NCBI GenBank assembly: GCA_049964835.1 | Contig: JBMFWW010000005.1 | Coordinates: forward strand, 22,047-35,647 | From: Candidatus Micrarchaeia archaeon | GTDB lineage: Archaea > Micrarchaeota > Micrarchaeia > Micrarchaeales > CABMGC01 | DNA length: 13,601 nucleotides | Direction of reading: 5' to 3' | In this document: positions 2 through 12,396 of the stretch, piece after piece | Position numbering within the stretch: position 1 is the stretch's first letter | Layout of the letters: each line of letters begins with the position of its first letter | The notes under the pieces: model-generated | What the model saw: only the letters and a program-made list of their open reading frames with translations | The model's database searches: none | What the model was told of the DNA's origin: nothing | Position numbers and translations under genes: made by a program

Positions 2-1336
2 ATAATATCAAATTCAACTCCAATTTCTGTATTAAATAATCAGAGTTGTTCAATGCAATTATATAATATTTCATATATCCCGTTACAGCAAACAGTTGCA
101 ATAAAGTTTTTTGAAGTTCACAAAATCTCACAATCAAATAATACTATAAATACTACAAAAAATATTACAATAACAAAACCTACAAACATAACAATTTCAG
201 AGTCTTCAAAGAATATTACATTTAAAAATAGAGTAGTAAATACAACCGTAAGTATATCAAATATTACTCCAACAATAATCCATAGCGTTAGCAACAACAA
301 TAACGTTTCATTATATATATCTTCAAAGTCAAATACAAACACAAAATTGAGTTTCTCAGTTCCTCCACTTTCTGATTATCCACTACCTAATAAATATAAA
401 ACTACAATTTCATTAGTAAACGTTACATTAAATAAAAGTTCAAATGTATCTACAAAATTAAACTCATCTTACAACTGCAGTATACCTTCAAATACAATAG
501 AACCATTTATCTATACAAACGATCAATGGGTTCAAATTAATAATTATACAATAAATACAAAATTATGTATAATATCGGTTGTAATACCAAAAGATCCAAT
601 AATTGGAATTTTCACTAATTACACATTAAGTACACCATCTAATAAATCTATCACTTCTACACAAACAACTACTCAAATAACATCAGTAATAACAAGTACC
701 TACAACTCAACCAGTAAAATAATAACTAAAAACGGTACCTCTACAGCAATAACTATTTCAAGTAACAATCCATTATATCTTGTTGTGTTTATAATTGCCG
801 CATTGCTTGTAATTGCATATATACTTAAAGAAAAAATTCTAAAACAAAAACCAACAAAACCTACTAATATTCAAAATGAACTTAAAGAAGATAGAACCAT
901 TCAAAACAATCAACAAACAAACTATATCAGAGAAAGTAATGATACAGAAAGAAACATAGAAAATGATAACAAAAAAGAACTAGATAATAATGAAATTAGT
1001 AATGCCGAAGAAATTACAAATAATGAAAATAAAGAAAGCTCTGATGAAACCAATACAGAAAATACTGAAGGTCAAACTGATTCTAGCGAAGAAAATAATA
1101 ATATAAATAATCAAGAAAATACTAAAGACGAAATAGATACTAATCCCGATGAAGTAAATACTCAAGAAAAATCTAGCGAAGAAGAATCTCAAGATGAGAA
1201 TAAAAAAGAAAACCTTGAAAATAATAACAGTTTAGACAAAGAAAATAATCCTAATTCGGATTCAACTCAAAACACAAATATCGAACCTAAAAATAACGAT
1301 GATACTGACTATAATTCTGATTCACACGACTTTTAA
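2..1336 (+). CDS. 3' part of a membrane-anchored cell-surface protein: N/S/T-rich ectodomain, S/T linker, one TM helix, long acidic Asn/Glu-rich cytoplasmic tail
   Basis: The frame of ORF 53..1336 is open back to the window edge (ata ata tca aat...), so the gene is 5'-partial. It has many N-x-S/T sequons, a Thr/Ser-rich linker (TSTQTTTQITSVITST), a hydrophobic helix LYLVVFIIAALLVIAYIL followed by basic KEKILKQK, then a low-complexity acidic tail. Confidence 0.75.
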   Translation: MISNSTPISVLNNQSCSMQLYNISYIPLQQTVAIKFFEVHKISQSNNTINTTKNITITKPTNITISESSKNITFKNRVVNTTVSISNITPTIIHSVSNNNNVSLYISSKSNTNTKLSFSVPPLSDYPLPNKYKTTISLVNVTLNKSSNVSTKLNSSYNCSIPSNTIEPFIYTNDQWVQINNYTINTKLCIISVVIPKDPIIGIFTNYTLSTPSNKSITSTQTTTQITSVITSTYNSTSKIITKNGTSTAITISSNNPLYLVVFIIAALLVIAYILKEKILKQKPTKPTNIQNELKEDRTIQNNQQTNYIRESNDTERNIENDNKKELDNNEISNAEEITNNENKESSDETNTENTEGQTDSSEENNNINNQENTKDEIDTNPDEVNTQEKSSEEESQDENKKENLENNNSLDKENNPNSDSTQNTNIEPKNNDDTDYNSDSHDF

Positions 1337-3748: not shown

Positions 3749-5680
3749 TTAGTGCTTTATTCCGAGTGTCATAAGTATAAATGCATATTTAAATGCTAGC
3801 GATTTATATCTTTCTTCATTTTTAGAACTCATTACATGTCCTCCTGAAATGTTTATCCTCAATAATAATAAATTATTATCACTTTTCATTTTTCTCATTT
3901 TTGCAATAAATTTTAATACTTCCAAATAATAAACTTTTACATCATTTATTCCAATAATTACAAGAATATTAGGATATCGTTGCGATTTAATATTTTCATA
4001 AGGAGAGTAAGACTTAATATAATTATAATACTTTTTTTTATTTGGGTTACCCCATTCTTTATACTCTCTTATGGTAAATGGGCGTTTTTTATCTGATATT
4101 TTACTTAATAACTCTACAACTGGTGATGTCATTACTGCAGCTTTAAATAATTCTGGTCTTTTATTTATTACAGATCCGATAAGCAATCCACCGGCACTAG
4201 CTCCTTCAATAACTAGTAACTCTTTAGATGTATATCTTTTAGCTATCAAATGTTCTGCACAGGCTACGAAATCATTAAACGTATTTTTCTTTTTTAATAA
4301 TTTACCTTCTTGATACCATCGACTACCTTTTTCAGAACCTCCTCTAATATGTGCTATTCCAAAAATAACTCCTCTATCAAGCAAACTCAACCGCTCAACT
4401 GAAAATGTTGGTAAATAACAAATTCCATAAGCCCCATATCCCCAAAGTAACATCGGTTGCCTTTTATTTCTGTTTAACTCTTTTTTATAAATAATTGAAA
4501 TAGGTATTTTATTTCCATCTTTCGCAGTAGCATAAATTTTTTCTGTTTTATAATTAGAACTATTATACTTTTTTATTTTATCTATCTCATTTAATTTTAA
4601 AATATTATTATCCATATCATATTCCAATAATGATTTAGGAATGGTAAATGAGCTATAAATCAAGCGTAAGTTTTTACTATTAAAATCTTGATATGTATCA
4701 AATGAAACGGTACACATTTTTTGGGGCATTTTAATAAATTTTTTAGTTCCTGTAACTATATTTAAAACAATAATTTTATTTGTTGCGTCTGAAATAACTT
4801 TAATTACTATATAATTACGAAATACCTTAAAACTATCTAATTTATTATTTTTATTATTTGGAATTAACGTTTTCCAATTTTCTTTTAGTTTGTTATTAAC
4901 TGGTGTTCTAACTAACTTAAAATTAGGCGCATTTTCATTTGTTAACATATAAAAATATTTACCAAACTGTTCAATATAACATATACTTTTTTTGTTCTTA
5001 TTGAAAAGTTTTAAATCATTCTTATAATCCCCTATTTGGATAAATCTTATTTCTGTAGAATCAATCCCAATCGAATATAAAAAAAGAAATTTTTCACTTT
5101 CAGATTTTTTAACAGATAAATAGTAATAAGCGTTTTTTTCTTCATATAATAACTTATTCTTTTTAAATTTATCTATAAAATTTGAAATATAAGCTCTATA
5201 AGATCTATATATTTTATCAATAGTTGTATAAACTATTGTGTTATCATCTAACCACTCTAACTCCCACACTCCGGTTATTTTTTTAATAATTTTATCTGTA
5301 CTTATTTTTTTAATATATGTTATATACTCTTCTGTTCCTGTTGTATTAACTGAATAAGCAATAAATGTGTTATTTGTACTAATTTTAAAATCATCAAATA
5401 AAAAGTATTTATGTCCTTCTGCAATTTTATTAAGATCTAAAATAAGTTCCTCTTTTTTATTCAAGGAGTTTTTTCTAAAATATGTCTTATACTGCGCACC
5501 GTTTTTAATTTTCCAATAATACTCATACTCTTTTATTTTTATAACATTTGAAAAACTAATACTTTTATATCGATTTTTAATCTCATTATATATTTTATTT
5601 TGTAATTCAGAAGTCTGTGCCATTATTGAATTAGTATACTCATTTTCTTTTTTTATATATGCCTTAATCGTTTTTACCAT
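3749..5680 (-). CDS. ptrB: S9A serine peptidase, oligopeptidase B (protease II)-like
   Basis: Motifs ENEYT (N-terminal), LLWGYGAYG, AHIRGGSEKG..WY..GK..KK.NTFNDF, nucleophile GASAGG, EWGNP, SYSPYEN, catalytic Asp in NDVKV and His in GGH. The N-terminus may be shortened (see findings). Confidence 0.9.
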   Translation of the reverse strand: MVKTIKAYIKKENEYTNSIMAQTSELQNKIYNEIKNRYKSISFSNVIKIKEYEYYWKIKNGAQYKTYFRKNSLNKKEELILDLNKIAEGHKYFLFDDFKISTNNTFIAYSVNTTGTEEYITYIKKISTDKIIKKITGVWELEWLDDNTIVYTTIDKIYRSYRAYISNFIDKFKKNKLLYEEKNAYYYLSVKKSESEKFLFLYSIGIDSTEIRFIQIGDYKNDLKLFNKNKKSICYIEQFGKYFYMLTNENAPNFKLVRTPVNNKLKENWKTLIPNNKNNKLDSFKVFRNYIVIKVISDATNKIIVLNIVTGTKKFIKMPQKMCTVSFDTYQDFNSKNLRLIYSSFTIPKSLLEYDMDNNILKLNEIDKIKKYNSSNYKTEKIYATAKDGNKIPISIIYKKELNRNKRQPMLLWGYGAYGICYLPTFSVERLSLLDRGVIFGIAHIRGGSEKGSRWYQEGKLLKKKNTFNDFVACAEHLIAKRYTSKELLVIEGASAGGLLIGSVINKRPELFKAAVMTSPVVELLSKISDKKRPFTIREYKEWGNPNKKKYYNYIKSYSPYENIKSQRYPNILVIIGINDVKVYYLEVLKFIAKMRKMKSDNNLLLLRINISGGHVMSSKNEERYKSLAFKYAFILMTLGIKH

Positions 5681-5807
5681 GTTTATCTTCCACTAATGAA
5701 CAATTATCCGCTTCATTTTTTAACTGTTTTTGAATTTTTCTTTATCGATAATACTTTTTTCATGTAATCTTATAAAATATATAAACACATCATTTATTAA
5801 TTTAATC

Positions 5808-7037
5808 TTATTCAGCAAATAATGGTTTTATATGTAGTGGGCATAATGGCAAATCATTGTTTATATTTTCTTTATAATTCAAAACAGATCCAGTACGACA
5901 GTAATCAAAATGCTCACATTTTTTACATACATTCGGTATACTTGCGTTTCTTAACATTTCTAAATTTTTATTATTATTCCATAATTTGCTTATACCCTCT
6001 TGAAAGACATTGCCCAAAAAAGCTTTATTATGTGGTAAATCATATGTAGTGCTATAAGTTGATCCGTCATACAAAATATGTAAAACTCTTCTAGTATCTA
6101 TTGTTCCATATAAAATATTCGATAAGTTCTTATCATATTCTAGATCCATATCCTCATAAATCAGAAAAGGGAAATTTGTACGTGAAGTTATCTTAACATT
6201 ATATTTTTTACCAATTATCATGGCTTTTTTAAGAATTTCTTTAAAATCCCAAAAATCTATTCCATCTTTTTGGTTAATAGAACCAAAATCACTTTTACTC
6301 CAATGAAATAAAGTTATTGCTTTTATACCATTATCACACAAAAACTTTATAGTTTCTAATACTGAATCTTTATTATTTTTCGTAATTAAAGTTGTAACAT
6401 GCGTTTTTAATCCCTTATTTATTACTCTGTCCAAAAAATTCAGTTCTTTATTTAGTGCTACGTTATTATTTACAATATCTGCATGTATTTTAGGCAAATG
6501 TGAGTGAAATGATAAACTAAATGATATATCATATTCAACTATCTTATTTATTAGATTTTCATTATACATTGTTCCATTGCTTGATATTGAAATAATCAAA
6601 TCTCTTTTATAAGCGATATCCAAAAGCCATCCCAAATCCCTATATAATAAGGGTTCGCCACCTAGAATAGATAAAGAAAAAATACCATTTTCAACTAATT
6701 CATTCATTATGCTAATAGCATTTTTTCTACTTAAGCCATTTATTTTATTATCTAATCTATTCCCAATATAACAAAATTTACATCTTTCGTTACAAAATAA
6801 TGTAGGATATAAATCTACTGTAGTTGGAGCTGAAAGTATATCACTTCTGAGAATCTTGCTTTTTAGAAATTTAATTTCGGATGAATCAAAAAATTCATAT
6901 TTATTATTTTTTGCTACTTCAACTCCCCTACTAAAATCTAAATTTTTATTAGTTTTATAAGTGTATATTTTATCCTATTTATTATCATAAAATAAATAAC
7001 CAAAAAACTCCTTTCTAACAAATAATCTGTATACCAT
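5808..7037 (-). pseudogene. Radical SAM/SPASM peptide maturase with N-terminal RRE-like segment, interrupted by an in-frame TAG at codon 21
   Basis: The tracked ORF 5808..6707 lacks the SAM motif. The same frame extends to ATG 7037: MVYRLFVRKEFFGYLFYDNK*DKIY...LSAPTTVDLYPTLFCNERCKFCY (CxxxCxxC at 6794-6771), then GGEP, SSNG, and C-terminal LGNV....I..LW and CKKCEHFDYC...CP. The TAG is at 6977-6975. Confidence 0.85.
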
Positions 7038-7066
7038 AAATATCTAGTTGGTTATTAATATGTTGT

Positions 7067-7201
7067 TTATTTTCTTTTGATTGGACTATAACTTGGCCAC
7101 TTTTCTGATCTTGGCATACCAAATTGTTTACTATTCACGGCCTCTTCAATTTTTATAACTGAAATTATCTTATTTTCAGTTACAATTTTTCTTAATTTCA
7201 T
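7067..7201 (-). CDS. Candidate RiPP precursor peptide, 44 aa: MKLRKIVTENKIISVIKIEEAVNSKQFGMPRSEKWPSYSPIKRK
   Basis: Clean ATG..TAA ORF with a GGTGA SD just upstream and a BRE/TATA ~30 nt upstream. It ends 29 nt before the radical SAM ATG and is below the ORF-track size cutoff. Confidence 0.75.
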   Translation of the reverse strand: MKLRKIVTENKIISVIKIEEAVNSKQFGMPRSEKWPSYSPIKRK

Positions 7202-7205
7202 TATT

Positions 7206-7245
7206 TCACCAATATTTATTATTCTTTCCTGTATAAATACTTTCT
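7206..7245 (-). promoter_or_regulatory. Archaeal promoter (BRE+TATA) and SD for the precursor-rSAM-peptidase operon
   Basis: The minus strand reads AGAAAG-TATTTATA (7245-7232), then GGTGA (7210-7206) before ATG 7201. Confidence 0.55.
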
Positions 7246-7290
7246 ACCATAATTATTAGATTCTTTAGAAAAAAAAACAAAAAGTATTAT

Positions 7291-7317
7291 ACTAATTTAG
7301 AAATTTTCTAATTTAGT
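7291..7317. promoter_or_regulatory. Inverted repeat upstream of the precursor promoter
   Basis: ACTAATTTAGAAA-t-TTTCTAATTTAGT: 13-bp arms with one mismatch, containing CTAATTTAG twice. Confidence 0.35.
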
Positions 7318-7361
7318 CAAATAAATATGTTGTTAGAGTAAATTACAAACTAAATAGTTCT

Positions 7362-8276
7362 CTATGACAATTCAGAAAGCTTTTTCATATTCATTCCAAA
7401 TTTTTCAGAAAGAAGGAAATTTAAAATATCCTTACATTCAAAAACATGTCCAGAACCGATAACCAACGCAACACTCTTAGTTGTTTCAAGTTCCTTTAAA
7501 ACTCGCTCTATAATATGGGTATTTCTATATGCTTCAAGATAAGCGCTAGCCTTGTTTATTGGATATTTAACACAATATGGAAATGGAACTGTAAGCTCTT
7601 CATAATTTTGTATATCAGAAAAACTCTTTCCAGTATTTTTAATATTATTATGCTCAATAAAAGTATTAATCCCTGCATCTATCTCTGGCGAATACTGTTT
7701 CATCAACTCTAAAAATTGGTTTTTGTAAGAGTATAGAGAACCATTTTCATTTAAAAACTCCCATTTAAGTACATCTAGTGTTTTTTCATAAACCTCTTCA
7801 TTACTCTTATCTAACATATTGCCCTTAAAGTACCTATATATGCTTACAAAGTTCCAATAAACTCCAAGCTCAATTCCTGTATACTGCTTTTTGTCATATT
7901 CCGAAAGTATTTTCAAATAAGTGGCTCTTGAAAGATTAATTCCAAGAACCGTTGATTCAAATAAAAAGGACAACCTAGCTCCTATACCTACCTCATCCCC
8001 CTGAGCTACTAATTTTTCTATTCTGCTCTGTGGCGTGTTCTCATCAATCTCAAGAAATGTAGTTTTAGGCCGAAATCTTTTGAATACGCTTGAAAATGCA
8101 TCTATAGTATCTCCAGTTAGCTGCTGGTGTCTATGGCCTAAGAACAAAAACGTTTTTTCATTATTATAATAAAGTACACTGTTATCTAAAAATAACTCTT
8201 TTTGTGTCATGATTTTATAGTTGGTCTTTGGTATATGCTTGTATATAAGGTATTCATAAAATTCTTCTGGCGCCAT
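7362..8276 (-). CDS. TraB/GumN/TIKI-like (EreA/ChaN-fold) putative metal-dependent hydrolase or protease
   Basis: Ordered motifs FLFLGHRH, RPKTTFLE, GDE, YRNTHI and LVIGSGH match the GxxH...E...E...RN...GxxH pattern of this superfamily. Confidence 0.55.
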   Translation of the reverse strand: MAPEEFYEYLIYKHIPKTNYKIMTQKELFLDNSVLYYNNEKTFLFLGHRHQQLTGDTIDAFSSVFKRFRPKTTFLEIDENTPQSRIEKLVAQGDEVGIGARLSFLFESTVLGINLSRATYLKILSEYDKKQYTGIELGVYWNFVSIYRYFKGNMLDKSNEEVYEKTLDVLKWEFLNENGSLYSYKNQFLELMKQYSPEIDAGINTFIEHNNIKNTGKSFSDIQNYEELTVPFPYCVKYPINKASAYLEAYRNTHIIERVLKELETTKSVALVIGSGHVFECKDILNFLLSEKFGMNMKKLSELS

Positions 8277-8370: not shown

Positions 8371-8754
8371 AACATTATTGGGGACAAGTTTCAATTTCCA
8401 AAAGAAAAAGAGGTAGATTCTATGTTAAAACGATGTTTTTATTGGTATCCTACAAAAATGATCAAATATTTAAATTTTTGGCTTAAAAATAATAAAGTAA
8501 TATCTTTTAATAGAATACCGCAATATATTTCATCTTTAAATGCTGGAATTAAACAATTAAAAGATAAAAATTATCATATTTTCTATGTGGATGTCTCTTT
8601 AAATGAAATTAAAAAAGCTGGATTTACGACAGGCAAGGTAATCATTCCAGAATTACAACCTTTATACCTTGCTGAAGAATCAAAAATGCTTTATAGTATA
8701 CATGGTGGAAATATTAAACCCGATAAAAATCTTAAACCACAACCGTTTTGTTAA
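8371..8754 (+). pseudogene. C-terminal fragment of a YcaO cyclodehydratase
   Basis: Contains IFYVDVS...GFTTGKVIIPELQPL and terminal KPQPFC (PxP-type YcaO C-terminus), directly before a SagB gene. It is only ~110-130 aa and lacks the N-terminal ATP-binding motifs. The frame is open upstream of ATG 8422 without another start codon, so the left boundary is approximate. Confidence 0.75.
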
Positions 8755-8765
8755 AAGTGTTTATT

Positions 8766-9467
8766 ATGTTAAAAGACGTTGAGGAATTTTATAAAAAAAC
8801 TAAACTTACTGAAATATCTCTTCCTAAAGGTAAAGCACCAATAGAATATATTCATGTATTCCATAAAGAATATCCAAGATTTTATTCTATAAAATTACCA
8901 CGCAGTTCAAAAGGCGGTGAGTATAATAAATTATTAAATACACGAAAATCTGTCAGACTTTTTTCAAATAAATTTATTTCAATTCAAACATTGGCAAATA
9001 TTTTTAAATCATGTGCAATTATAAAAAACAATCCTGAGAGAAGGTGTTATCCTTCAGCAGGTGTAAGGTTTCCAATAGAAATATATCTGGTAGCGTTCAG
9101 AATAAAAAATTTAAAACCAGGAGCATACCATCTAAATATTAAAAAATTTTCATTAGAGTTGTTATTAAAAACTAATTTAAGAAAATATGAACAGGAATTA
9201 GTATCTCCTTTCCTAAATAATACCGCAGGTATTATAATATTGACATCAGCAATATCACGTTCTGAAGTTAAATATGGATATAAATCATATCCGTTTTCAT
9301 TATTAGAAGCCGGACATATAAGTCAAAATATATTACTTTCTTGTACTAAATATAATGTAGGTAGTTGTCCAGTAGGTTGATTTATAAATGATACTATTAC
9401 AAAAATTTTAGATCTAACTGACGATGAGATTCCGTTAGAAACCATAGGTTTTGGATATTCAATATAA
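8766..9467 (+). pseudogene. SagB/ThcOx-type FMN-dependent azoline dehydrogenase with an in-frame TGA near the C-terminus
   Basis: Motifs KEYPRF..IKLP, RKSVRLF, RCYPSAGVRFPIEIY, GAYH, KYG and LEAGHISQN. After CPVG-TGA (9378-9380) the frame continues FINDTITKILDLTDDEIPLETIGFGYSI-TAA (9467), completing the usual CPxGGFxD..L.L...E...G terminus. The likely start is ATG 8766. Confidence 0.85.
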
Positions 9468-9482
9468 AGTTTAGGTATAAAA

Positions 9483-10724
9483 ATGAAAAATATAGTAATT
9501 AATTCAGATAAAATGTTTGATGGATACAAAATAACTGACAATGTTTCGATATTAATAATTGATGGTATAATAACTAAGATAGGTAAAAGAGGTGAATTTA
9601 AAGGGAAAACATTAAATACTAAATTTATACTTCCTGGATTAATCGACATGCATATACATTTGAGTACTTACGGTGGTTTGTATTATAAAAGTATAAAACT
9701 TATTCCTTATTTTAATAAAATGTTAATTTATAATGGCATAACTACAGTTAGAGATTTAGGCAATTCTTTAAATAATGTTTATAATTTTGAACATTACGAT
9801 GAACTTAAACCCAAAATTTTTTATTCTTTATTTTTAGATAGCGATAAACCATTATGGAGTATGTCATTTATTATAAAAAATAAAAAACAAATACCTGAAT
9901 TAATAAAAATGTACAGTGAAACAGGAATTAAATGGGTTAAAGCTTATCGAGGTATTAATCCAAAAATATTAAAAGAAATTATAAAAGAAGCACATCATAG
10001 AGGGCTTAAAGTTGCAGGGGATTTATTAACTACAAAACCAATAGATGCAATTAATATGAACATAGATACATTAGAACATGTTGTGATGTTAATAAATGAA
10101 ACATATGGAAACAAAGATAAATCAATAGAAAAAATATATAAAAAATGGGCTAGTATAAATTTGAATTCTAAAAGTATTGAAAAACTTATTAATAATTTAG
10201 TTATAAGTAAGACAGTACTATGTCCTACGTTAATTTTAAGCCAAATGGAATTGTTTCCTTCGTTAAAGTATTCAGAATATTTAAAAATCTTATTTCCATT
10301 AGATAAAATTTATACAAATAAAAAGACTAAGAATAATTTTAGTAAGATTAACTATAGTGTTAGAAAAAACGCATTTAAAAATATGCTGAAATTAATTAAG
10401 AAGCTAAATGAAAACGGAGTAAAATTAATATCTGGAACTGATTCTGGAAATCCGTATATTGCCCCAGGTTTTTCAATGCATCAAGAACTAAAATTATTAG
10501 TAAATTGTGGTTTAACCCCAATCGAAGCATTAAAATGTGCAACAACTAATGCCGCTGCTGTTCTTGGAAATGAAAAAATAGGACAGATAAAAGATGGTTA
10601 TAAAGCAGATATTATACTTTTAACAAAAGATGTTGAATATAATATAGCCAATATAGATAAAATATCACATGTTATTTTAGATGGAAAAATTAAGAAGATT
10701 AATATTAAAAATCTTAGAAAATAG
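9483..10724 (+). CDS. Metal-dependent amidohydrolase (TIM-barrel, imidazolonepropionase/prolidase-like)
   Basis: Motifs ILPGLIDMHIH, GITTVRDLG, VKAY, TLEH, SGTDSG, and G.I..GYKADIILL. Confidence 0.9.
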   Translation: MKNIVINSDKMFDGYKITDNVSILIIDGIITKIGKRGEFKGKTLNTKFILPGLIDMHIHLSTYGGLYYKSIKLIPYFNKMLIYNGITTVRDLGNSLNNVYNFEHYDELKPKIFYSLFLDSDKPLWSMSFIIKNKKQIPELIKMYSETGIKWVKAYRGINPKILKEIIKEAHHRGLKVAGDLLTTKPIDAINMNIDTLEHVVMLINETYGNKDKSIEKIYKKWASINLNSKSIEKLINNLVISKTVLCPTLILSQMELFPSLKYSEYLKILFPLDKIYTNKKTKNNFSKINYSVRKNAFKNMLKLIKKLNENGVKLISGTDSGNPYIAPGFSMHQELKLLVNCGLTPIEALKCATTNAAAVLGNEKIGQIKDGYKADIILLTKDVEYNIANIDKISHVILDGKIKKINIKNLRK

Positions 10725-11180
10725 GAACTTGACAAATTAAATATCTTTGTGTTTATAGTATTTTGTGGAATTTCTCTTCTCTTTTTGTCGTCGTAAGACG
10801 ATTTACCGTTAGGCTCCTGAGCAACAGATACAACGAGTGCATCGGTCGCCTGCCAGGAGATGTATAAAATGAAATTATATGAGTCAAAGAATAAAATACT
10901 AGAGATTTGGGCAACAGCCCGGGTTATAGTCCAGAAATATGGGCATAGAAAGAAGTTTGCAAAGCATATTGTTGCATTTGTAATTAAACAAATGAAACAT
11001 TTTACAGATGAGGAGCTTGCAGACTTTTTACTTGTGGATAAGATTGGTAAAATATTAGGATATAAAAAGAGACCGCACGCATCAGTATTTTCCAAGGTTA
11101 GAAAAAGGTCTGATCCCAAAATTTTTGAGGATATGTATAATTGGTTTCTAAAAGAAAAGTATGTAGGAAGGCAGATAAAA
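10725..11180 (+). mobile_element. IS remnant: putative left end or leader plus DDE-transposase N-terminal (DUF772-like, IS4/IS5-type) domain, catalytic domain missing
   Basis: Reads F..KQMKHFTDEELADFL....KILGYKKRPHASVFSKVRKR....F, the PxxSxFSxxRxR signature of transposase N-terminal domains. No DDE region follows. An AGGAG SD at 10855-10859 favours ATG 10869. No partner inverted repeat was found. Confidence 0.6.
10787..10859 (-). ncRNA. Candidate structured RNA overlapping the transposase RBS (antisense or leader)
   Basis: Minus strand: CUCCUG-GCA-GGCGAC-C-GAUGCA-[CUCGU]-UGUAUC-U-GUUGCU-CAGGAG, three 6-bp helices with G-U pairs. Two small hairpins follow. The segment is GC-rich in an AT-rich context. 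Confidence 0.4.
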
Positions 11181-11354
11181 ATAAGAGTAGAAAAAGATAA
11201 GGCCTTTGTACAAGATCTAAGAACCAATATGATATTTTTAACTACCGCGGATGTTGCAAAACGAATAAACATCATTTTAAATAAGACCTTTGAAGAGGCT
11301 TCTCGCTCCGATCCTGATATTCTTAAGTTATTTGAATACAGAAAAAGTGCGTAA
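10869..11354 (+). CDS. Chimeric ORF: transposase N-terminal domain fused to a PqqD/RRE-like C-terminal segment
   Basis: After GRQIK (~11180) the sequence IRVEKDKAFVQDLRTNMIFLTTADVAKRINIIL aligns without gaps to the N-terminus of the other radical SAM (VRKEFFGYLFYDNK*DKIY). It stops 1 nt before ATG 11356. Confidence 0.55.
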   Translation: MKLYESKNKILEIWATARVIVQKYGHRKKFAKHIVAFVIKQMKHFTDEELADFLLVDKIGKILGYKKRPHASVFSKVRKRSDPKIFEDMYNWFLKEKYVGRQIKIRVEKDKAFVQDLRTNMIFLTTADVAKRINIILNKTFEEASRSDPDILKLFEYRKSA

Positions 11355-11355
11355 C

Positions 11356-12396
11356 ATGGAAAGGGTATATCCTGATTTTCCATTTAGGGTAGAGTTTGAA
11401 GTAACCAGTGTTTGCAATCTTGATTGTAAGTACTGTTATGCAAAACCGTTTACATGGAAAACGCCTTCATTTGAAAATATAGAGTATCTCTTTAAAAAAA
11501 CAAAAGAGGAAGCAGATCCTTTTGAGACTGTGCTTGTAGGCGGAGAGCCATTTATAAGAACAGATATGGTTTCATTAATTGAACTTGCAAATAATGTATT
11601 CAGAAGAGGCGTTCAAATAAGTACTAATGGAACATTGTTATCAAGGCTTGATAAAAAGCAGCTCATACGCTTAAAGGATGCAGTAAATGATGGGGTTTCA
11701 CTGCAGGTATCTATAGATAGTTTAAATCCAAGTATAAATGACATTACCAGAGGAAAGACCAAAGAGTCAATAGACGGCATAAATACACTTGAAAAGAGCG
11801 GCATACCCTTCTCCGTAGGGATAGTATTTACAAATGTAAATTCTAATGATATAGTTGCAACAACTTCTAAACTCATAAAAGAATACTCATATTTAGTTTC
11901 GTTAAATCTAGAGCCTCTCCAGCCAACTTCTATACTGGGCGCTGAGTACTTTGAATTAAAGCAGGAAAGCACCGAAATGAGACGACTCTTTAATTTAGTT
12001 AATGGTATTATTAAAGTTCATGGGAGGGACGAATTAAAACTTTATGGTATAGTAGAGGACTGCTCTGAATCTGTAAAGTTTGAGACGCCTGTTCTTGACA
12101 AATACGCATTTAAAACCTGCACCGCTGGCCTTGTTAGAGCTGCAGTTTTTGTTGATGGTTCAGTTACTCCTTGTTCATTAATACGTGATATAAAAATTGG
12201 AAATCTATATACAGATTCATGGGTAGGTATATGGCAGCGTTCCAGAGAAAGATTTGAGTCTATAAAAGATAGTGGTGTAAGCCAGTGTGCAATAAATCTT
12301 CTCCATGAGTCTAAAAGAAATGATAGCTCATTTGTATCACTTGCGGAGGTTGTTGAAAGAATAGAAAAAAGAAAAAGTAGAGTTCTTTCAAAGTAA
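11356..12396 (+). CDS. Radical SAM enzyme with Twitch/partial SPASM domain (PqqE/MftC-like group)
   Basis: Motifs CNLDCKYCY, GGEP, STNG, VSIDS, CTAG...DGSVTPC and IGNL....IW. ATG 11356, right after the upstream TAA, is a likelier start than 11290. Confidence 0.9.
   Translation: MERVYPDFPFRVEFEVTSVCNLDCKYCYAKPFTWKTPSFENIEYLFKKTKEEADPFETVLVGGEPFIRTDMVSLIELANNVFRRGVQISTNGTLLSRLDKKQLIRLKDAVNDGVSLQVSIDSLNPSINDITRGKTKESIDGINTLEKSGIPFSVGIVFTNVNSNDIVATTSKLIKEYSYLVSLNLEPLQPTSILGAEYFELKQESTEMRRLFNLVNGIIKVHGRDELKLYGIVEDCSESVKFETPVLDKYAFKTCTAGLVRAAVFVDGSVTPCSLIRDIKIGNLYTDSWVGIWQRSRERFESIKDSGVSQCAINLLHESKRNDSSFVSLAEVVERIEKRKSRVLSK

Follow-up and report, generated by a model that had tools for sequence, protein, structure and literature searches.

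What does a run of three genes in a small archaeal genome encode: a peptide-modification pathway of a new kind, a known one in unusual form, or the remains of one? The question is raised by positions 3749 to 7245 of a 13,601-nt stretch of Candidatus Micrarchaeia archaeon DNA (contig JBMFWW010000005.1), which was analysed at its full length and is hereafter called the window. Here, a gene for a 44-amino-acid (aa) peptide, a gene for a radical S-adenosylmethionine (SAM) enzyme and a gene for an S9 peptidase follow one another, and an earlier note on this DNA had proposed that they form one operon of an undescribed class of peptides synthesized ribosomally and modified post-translationally (RiPPs). 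We find that the peptide and enzyme genes are a conserved precursor/maturase-type pair and, judged by its relatives, a divergent streptide-type system rather than a new RiPP class. The enzyme gene is interrupted by an in-frame TAG codon, and the peptidase gene was probably acquired separately. The features are as follows, with W-4 denoting the fourth residue before the core Trp and AuxI and AuxII the two auxiliary clusters of related enzymes.

7067..7201, minus strand: precursor-like peptide gene, 44 aa; leader with IKIEEAVN, core FGMPRSEKWPSYSPIKRK; Gly28 and Trp35 invariant, basic residue at W-4
5808..7037, minus strand: SuiB/StrB-like radical SAM peptide maturase gene of 409 codons (ATG at 7037, stop at 5808-5810), broken by an in-frame TAG
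6975..6977, minus strand: the in-frame TAG, codon 21 of the radical SAM gene; Glu in the two closest homologues
6771..6794, minus strand: CNERCKFC, the CxxxCxxC radical SAM cluster motif, residues 82-89; C82, C86 and C89 invariant
5841..5927, minus strand: C371-x2-C374-x5-C380...C399, the sole conserved C-terminal cysteines, AuxII-type
5681..5807, minus strand: spacer of 127 nt between the radical SAM and S9 genes, with TTTATATA at 5778-5785 and the remnant MKRIIVH-TAG-WKIN
3749..5680, minus strand: S9A oligopeptidase B-like peptidase, 643 aa; Ser495/Asp580/His615 kept, about 30 conserved N-terminal residues absent
7202..7361, minus strand: intergenic region 5′ of the peptide gene; GGTGA (7206-7210) stands four bases ahead of the peptide ATG; promoter presumed only

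A conserved pair of peptide and enzyme genes

Upstream DNA can be read at six distinct loci of the enzyme family, the window included (L017 is identical to L112). At five of the six (the window, L014, L111, L017/L112 and L113) a small open reading frame (ORF) ending G-x-[K/R]-x-x-(x)-W lies 5′ of the enzyme gene, which is the outcome that had been set beforehand as the check on a precursor. The accompanying enzymes span a wide range of divergence. In L111 (enzyme 53% identical to that of the window) the upstream ORF reads ...ITVSEAVNTGQFGHKKTGGWI, ending ...QFGHKKTGGWI; in L014, from Micrarchaeota (36%), it reads ...VVEEIRNCWRFGMMKGDSWPKT, ending ...RFGMMKGDSWPKT; in L017, from Terracidiphilus (33-34%), ...LLGLDKGSWHCGGGMGGL, with ...LGLDKGSWHC...; and in L113 (27%), ...ELGFSKSSWGSAC, with ...LGFSKSSWGSAC. 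The sixth locus, L013 from Thermoplasmatota (36%), has no such small ORF upstream, and fragments of DDE transposases lie on its flanks. Closer to the window, both peptide and enzyme are present in three relatives, where the peptide homologues are 80%, 77% and 73% identical and sit on contigs equal in size to those bearing the 85-87% identical enzyme homologues.

Alignment of eight peptides shows an invariant start Met, G28 and W35. A basic residue stands at W-4 in six of them and at W-3 in the other two, so that one precedes the Trp in all eight. The cores read RSEKW in the window, RSESW in the window clade, KGDSW in L014 and KTGGW in L111; a Lys-x-x-x-Trp core fits L014 and L111, the window has Arg at W-4, and L017 and L113 read K-x-x-W. 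The 44-aa peptide itself has no match in Pfam or NCBIfam. What had been proposed from the window alone, a pairing of the precursor/maturase type, is thus found repeatedly: a small ORF is conserved beside the enzyme across divergent hosts, as is general for RiPP precursors and their maturases, and the 44-aa ORF with its radical SAM gene is one instance.

If the small ORF were a chance reading or an unrelated gene, and the enzyme acted elsewhere, a family locus without it, such as L013, would be expected. Its position, its orientation and its G...[K/R]xxxW core are kept, on the other hand, beside enzymes only 27-53% identical and in archaeal as well as bacterial hosts, and we consider this explanation very improbable.

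The enzyme family is closest to SuiB and StrB

The window enzyme belongs to a family of 12 homologue clusters (403-425 aa; E-values from 2.3e-229 to 1.3e-40), well separated from the next match (E 3.8e-15); about a dozen clusters at 50% identity match over the full length at >300 bits. Membership of the radical SAM superfamily is indicated both by the CxxxCxxC motif, with C82, C86 and C89 invariant in 13 of 13 sequences, and by the Pfam domain Radical_SAM (PF04055; residues 77-233, E 2.3e-19).

Within this superfamily, profile and fold agree on the nearest relative of solved structure. A profile built from 13 family members ranks SuiB (5V1Q) at the top (E 2.9e-35, 125 bits), followed by SkfB at 62 bits. 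An AlphaFold2 model of P0004, an intact homologue 87% identical to the window enzyme (predicted local distance difference test score 86.6, predicted template modelling score 0.88), likewise has SuiB as its first-ranked Foldseek match (E 3.9e-17, template modelling score 0.71), and VIA-align superposes the two over 382 residues (model 2-403, chain 5-439; Z 33.6, root mean square deviation 3.3 Å), with SkfB next at Z 28.1. Among the NCBIfam models, the KxxxW maturase model TIGR04080 is joint best for the enzyme (84.6 bits, residues 60-392). Moreover, true StrB-type enzymes in L016, L018 and L025, which are 26-28% identical to the family, have peptides ending ...AKGDGW or ...KKGDGW upstream. The prominence of SuiB by profile and fold, together with the StrB-type relatives and their KGDGW peptides, suggests that the window family is a sister group of StrB.

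In streptide biosynthesis of streptococci (StrA/StrB, SuiA/SuiB), a radical SAM/SPASM enzyme joins Lys-Cβ to Trp-C7 (PMC11851443). The peptide of the window, for which no precursor family had been recognised before, appears as a divergent streptide-type precursor once its relatives are read, the KGDSW core of L014 being a plain KxxxW motif. The proposal of a new RiPP class falls with it, as the nearest relatives of the enzyme are StrB and SuiB, and the basic-xxx-Trp cores (KGDSW, KTGGW, RSESW) resemble those of the AKGDGW precursors.

A further gene recurs on the 3′ side of streptide-type radical SAM genes: a protein with PPDK_N and PEP-utilizer domains (swivel-domain, phosphotransferase-like) is encoded there at L014 7247-9349 (Micrarchaeota) and at L025 6993-8723 (Bacilli).

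AuxII-type cysteines only and a shortened N-terminal domain

At the positions of the SuiB AuxI cysteines, the window family reads Thr, Thr/Ser and Ser, and CxxCx5C...C is retained. Across 25 related proteins, the AuxI columns contain no Cys at all in 20, two are kept in one, and all three in four more distant proteins. The Pfam SPASM domain (PF13186) is matched over residues 317-375 at 25 bits, just over the cut-off of 21.5. The enzyme had been described as a SPASM protein; it lacks the seven-cysteine SPASM pattern that ligates both AuxI and AuxII and has AuxII-type cysteines only, half of the SPASM set.

For the RiPP recognition element (RRE) attributed to the same enzyme, the observations point both ways. 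At E <= 1, the PqqD/RRE model PF05402 matched 0 of 16 family members, and residues 1-60 of the P0004 model form six strands and no helix, against an RRE norm of an N-terminal winged helix-turn-helix with three strands plus three helices. Even so, SuiB and SkfB have N-terminal domains onto which the modelled one can be superposed (VIA-align, from model residue 2-3); this is consistent with a truncated RRE-like sheet that has lost most of its helices. As a separate observation, a PqqD/RRE-like reading, ...YRKEPFGGISF..., occurs at ~5700-6100 of L015 (Parcubacteria), 5′ of a distant radical SAM core (30%, residues 68-384); it lies in a different frame, with a stop before the core, and could reflect a frameshift or a split gene.

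Loss of AuxI is known from WprB (cluster C11, Khan et al. 2025), a twitch-like enzyme that joins Trp-C5 to Arg-Cγ in WPR motifs, and some members of this cluster are archaeal (PMC11851443). The window family could accordingly be a cyclophane synthase of this kind, linking the Trp not to the preceding basic residue but to the residue at W+2 (W-P-X). The complete lack of AuxI cysteines, as in WprB (PMC11851443), would fit, as would the end of the L014 peptide, ...SWPKT, which conforms to WxK, and the WprA repeats SMAWPRH recall GM...WP. Position W+2, however, varies from Ser or Asp in the window clade to Lys in L014 and Cys in L017, and it does not exist in L111, which ends at W+1; a W-x-R/K motif is accordingly found only in L014 (WPK), the window reading WPS and its close relatives WPD. 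Since the basic residue before the Trp is kept in eight of eight peptides, a [K/R]-xxx-W macrocycle is favoured by these comparisons. In addition, the NCBIfam WgkB model gives the enzyme 46 bits, compared with about 85 for the StrB model, and the labels of the window family have no match among the precursors and accessions in the supplement of PMC11851443. Taken together, we regard a WprB-like linkage as quite improbable and retain the streptide-type reading. The literature covered, mostly titles and abstracts, contained no description of the family in archaea.

An in-frame TAG interrupts the enzyme gene

The radical SAM motif lies 5′ of the ORF first called, as had been pointed out: CNERCKFC precedes the first canonical start of the 299-aa ORF at 5808-6707. 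Five residues ahead of the TAG (M1, R8, E10, F12 and G13) are invariant in 13 of 13 aligned sequences, and the closest homologues, P0004 (87% identical) and P0005 (85%), have Glu at the TAG column, which argues that the ATG at 7037 is the ancestral start and that the TAG interrupts the gene. Between the TAG and the CxxxCxxC motif there is no ATG, GTG or TTG. The deposited gene call (P0003, 386 aa) begins at an ATA two codons past the TAG; we rejected this non-canonical codon as the native start because the product would lose the invariant R8/E10/F12/G13 strand.

Two 5′-proximal in-frame TAGs occur within 1.3 kb, one in the radical SAM gene (codon 21) and one in the frame extended upstream of the S9 gene (codon 8). 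Such a coincidence in neighbouring genes is what would be seen if this organism, or this island, translated TAG as an amino acid, leaving both frames intact. Several lines of evidence speak against this. Genome-wide, TAG terminates 84 of 500 long ORFs and so is an ordinary stop; it also ends three neighbouring genes of the window (p304, an amidohydrolase and a GNAT gene), where read-through would add only short, junk-like tails; a CUA anticodon is missing from all 31 tRNAs found; and the residues that homologues carry differ between the sites, with Glu at one and Phe, Tyr or Ala at the other. Given the ordinary stop usage, the lack of a CUA tRNA and the junk-like tails, we rejected recoding, which we judge to be extremely improbable.

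Apart from the TAG, the window enzyme shows no excess divergence from its homologues, so that the lesion is either very recent or an artefact of assembly. The copy found here is broken or mis-assembled, and the operon as it stands is probably inactive; a product would be expected only if the TAG were an error of the assembly.

No S9 peptidase gene beside four other family loci

All three genes are encoded on the minus strand, so that their co-orientation stands as first described. Their tight spacing stands for the gap between peptide and enzyme genes (29 nt) and less so for that between enzyme and peptidase genes (127 nt). The only strict TTTATATA of the region lies in the latter spacer (5778-5785, minus strand), not ahead of the peptide gene. 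The single archaeal promoter first read ahead of the three genes is a presumed one: TATA-like octamers in general are no commoner than chance would give in DNA as AT-rich as this (28 observed, 32.5 ± 6.6 expected), and a sigma-70/terminator scan gave 30 promoter-like sites (33 expected) and 0 terminators.

The S9 protein carries the Pfam domains Peptidase_S9_N (E 3.5e-60) and Peptidase_S9 (E 1.3e-57), and the catalytic triad S495, D580 and H615 is invariant in the alignment; domains and triad are those of oligopeptidase B. The NCBIfam oligopeptidase B model PRK10115, by contrast, scores 413.9 bits against a cut-off of 1313, which leaves the protein outside the full-length equivalog family. The profile match begins at position 33-37, and the conserved PPIA...DNYFWLR segment is absent. 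Upstream of the ATG, the same frame reads MKRIIVH-TAG-WKIN (5716 down to 5681; TAG at 5693-5695), with weak likeness to the RVDNYFW segment of oligopeptidase B, and its TAG, codon 8 of the extended frame, occupies a column of Phe, Tyr or Ala in oligopeptidase B homologues. The nearest relatives are one protein at 77% identity (P0129) and, after it, oligopeptidase B of bacteria at <=44%; of 60 relatives, 4 have homologues, and of 10 genomes of the genus, none.

The peptidase had been cast as the protease of the pathway, and examination of the neighbours of other family enzymes does not bear this out. Four other family loci have DNA that can be read downstream, and an S9 gene adjoins none of them; none lies within ~6 kb of the enzyme in L013, L014, L015 or L017, and tblastn over L002 and L013-L017 returned no match better than E 3. 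On the 3′ side of the enzyme gene, L014 has a gene for a PPDK_N/PEP-utilizer protein, L111 one for a GNAT protein, L017 one for an integrase and L013 a fragment of a transposase gene. Among 120 listed S9 clusters, in which fragments shorter than 353 aa were not searched, none has a longest contig of 36,609, 20,816, 3,538 or 2,419 nt, the sizes of the contigs that bear the close enzyme and peptide homologues, although this is a weak proxy. The absence of S9 genes beside other family loci implies that the pathway has not kept the peptidase as a conserved component.

An operon in working order, with all three genes in use, would account for several features of the window; leader removal or trimming of the modified peptide would then fall to the peptidase, and the TAG would be either mis-assembled or passed by read-through. 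The three genes lie side by side in one orientation, those for the radical SAM enzyme and S9 are alike in their extremely low GC content and are both missing at the syntenic site of the same-genus genome G001, the triad is intact, and the enzyme shows no excess divergence. The core is also flanked by basic residues (...NSK-QFGM..., ...IKRK), which would suit a peptidase cutting after Lys or Arg, as this protein presumably does. Weighed against these points are the absence of S9 beside the four other loci, a 127-nt spacer with a TTTATATA of its own, the loss of about 30 conserved N-terminal residues with an in-frame TAG in the upstream remnant, and the use of TAG as a normal stop with no ATG, GTG or TTG between it and the CxxxCxxC motif. 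On balance, we hold a working operon to be unlikely, though it is the most serious of the competitors. The S9 gene is probably a separately acquired, bacterial-type oligopeptidase B gene that looks truncated at its 5′ end, and not a dedicated partner of the pair; a local, opportunistic role in processing is possible at most.

A foreign cassette in a reduced genome

The source genome (806 kb in 46 contigs, 94% complete, ~31-32% GC) is that of a reduced DPANN-type archaeon, as the flanks of the locus had suggested, and has its order in common with a Micrarchaeota metagenome-assembled genome. Against this background, when 478 long ORFs are ranked, the radical SAM gene (25.4% GC) and the S9 gene (24.4%) stand at percentiles 2.3 and 0.4, whereas DnaG, p304, a second radical SAM gene and VIT1 have a GC content that is typical or high among long ORFs. 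In G001, p304 and DnaG are convergent as in the window, but the distance separating them is 1.36 kb, occupied by an unrelated surface-protein ORF, as against 3.8 kb in the window. Of 401 genomes sampled from the class, 3 were found to have the enzyme family, and mobile elements flank some of its loci (DDE transposase fragments in L013, phage-type integrases in L017).

Beyond p304, the window holds an apparent remnant of a thiazole/oxazole (TOMM) cluster at 8422-9380 and 9483-10724, both on the plus strand. For a 110-aa ORF, the match to the SagD/YcaO cyclodehydratase is confined to the C-terminal part (TIGR03604 positions 293-343 of 377, E 5e-8), and a SagB-type dehydrogenase gene (TIGR03605, 81.4 bits against a cut-off of 78.4) overlaps this ORF, its match running to the last residue, which corresponds to profile position 145 of 173. 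The SagD/YcaO fragment, the SagB-type gene and the amidohydrolase gene that follows have GC contents of 24-27%, and counterparts of all three are missing where G001, G002 and G004 are syntenic. An AT-rich cassette and SagD/SagB remnants, both absent from syntenic sites, point to several remnants of foreign peptide-modification genes around a variable spot.

The gene p304 (7362-8276, minus strand; 304 aa) has no significant match in Pfam or NCBIfam. Homologues 63-79% identical are present in 3 of 10 same-genus genomes, where further copies and fragments lie next to them, and the leads in the Atlas, to DUF5694 and Cofac_haem_bdg clusters (0.87-0.88), are weak. The second radical SAM/SPASM-like gene (10860-12396, plus strand; 368-aa ORF) has ScmE and WgkB as its best NCBIfam matches, and the C-terminal third of a 164-aa ORF just 5′ of it is conserved along with it. 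Both are kept next to p304 in the same-genus genomes G002 and G004 (70-72% and 65-69% identity) and may be a separate, genus-level peptide system. Finally, Asn/Thr-rich ORFs with a C-terminal hydrophobic anchor and the look of surface proteins occur at 2-1336 (plus strand) of the window and at ~9375-10310 of L107; the former has a long acidic low-complexity tail, and one such ORF fills the G001 interval that is taken here by the cassette.

Proposed explanation

We consider it likely, though well short of certain, that the locus is a streptide-type pair in an AT-rich foreign cassette, with the enzyme gene cut by a TAG and the S9 gene acquired separately. The peptide would be the precursor, its leader (...IKIEEAVN...) docking on the enzyme. 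By analogy with StrB and SuiB, which act at Lys-x-x-x-Trp, the core FGM-P-R-S-E-K/S-W-P... would be cyclised through a C-C bond, made by the radical SAM enzyme, between the side chain of the basic residue at W-4 and the indole of the Trp. The enzyme would represent a small, patchy, mobile-element-associated sister group of StrB that has lost the AuxI ligands and most RRE helices, and the cassette a foreign, AT-rich insertion between two genes conserved in the genus. With a nonsense codon at position 21, no product would be made here unless the TAG is an assembly error, and the separately acquired, N-terminally shortened S9 protein could serve at most as an opportunistic processing protease.

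Several observations weigh against parts of this explanation. The cross-link is extrapolated from homology at only 16-18% identity to SuiB, and every NCBIfam score of the enzyme is far under the family cut-off (for TIGR04080, 84.6 against 500 bits), so that none of these matches makes it an equivalog. The window peptide has Arg, not Lys, at W-4, and StrB-type enzymes are, to our knowledge, known for Lys only. The lesion sits in a gene that is not over-diverged: the window enzyme is 87% and 85% identical to P0004 and P0005, which are themselves 85% identical to each other. As for separate acquisition of the peptidase, the S9 and radical SAM genes have the same extreme AT content, which would fit joint arrival, and P0129, the only close S9 homologue, is truncated by a contig edge on what would be its enzyme-facing side. 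Lastly, the loss of AuxI resembles that in WprB, the maker of a different, Trp-x-Arg link (PMC11851443).

A more ambitious version, which we put forward as speculation with a small chance of being right, would have the window clade make an Arg-x-x-x-Trp macrocycle, the Arg side chain being joined to the indole, by means of a SuiB-like enzyme that needs just one auxiliary cluster and binds the leader through a domain of beta strands without helices. Mobile elements would have carried the system among DPANN and other archaea, and in this lineage the acquired oligopeptidase B variant would trim the core flanked by Lys and Arg.

We know of no archaeal radical SAM RiPP that has been characterised. 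According to PMC12144867, the only verified archaeal RiPPs are haloarchaeal lanthipeptides. With just two genes and with members that are intact (L111, L014 and the pair P0004/P0123), the family lends itself to testing. It is near enough to SuiB for its reaction to be predicted and differs in the lack of AuxI, the truncated leader-binding domain and an Arg/Lys donor position, so that it could reveal what the AuxI cluster and the RRE helices do and whether Arg can stand in for Lys. For this genome, the locus chiefly documents the decay of peptide-modification genes that a reduced archaeon gained by horizontal transfer.

Comparison with known systems

The S9 protein resembles oligopeptidase B (S9A) in its beta-propeller and catalytic domains and in its triad, and is 40-44% identical to bacterial proteins. 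It differs in lacking the N-terminal PPIA...DNYFWLR and in reading EYKEWGNP, as does P0129, for the consensus EYEEWGNP, at a position that we take to shape substrate preference.

With WprB, the window family shares the loss of AuxI cysteines and the retention of AuxII, and with WprA/WprB a Trp-centred core with Met and Pro nearby, in which Arg is a possible cross-link partner. Unlike in WprA, the conserved basic residue precedes the Trp and is not at W+2, and no gene for a WprC-like chaperone was seen beside the window family.

From streptide, the window family departs in the three missing AuxI cysteines, in an N-terminal domain that is ~30-40 residues shorter than that of SuiB, modelled as all-beta and without a PqqD match, in the Arg that replaces Lys at W-4 in the window clade, in the lack of a transporter gene adjoining the window cassette, and in its hosts, which are DPANN, other archaea and an acidobacterium rather than streptococci. 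It is nevertheless streptide that it resembles in gene order, with a short precursor gene directly 5′ of the enzyme gene, in its best match by profile and fold, which is SuiB with the N-terminal domain included, and in a basic-x-x-x-Trp core (KGDSW in L014, KTGGW in L111) comparable to the AKGDGW found beside StrB-type enzymes.

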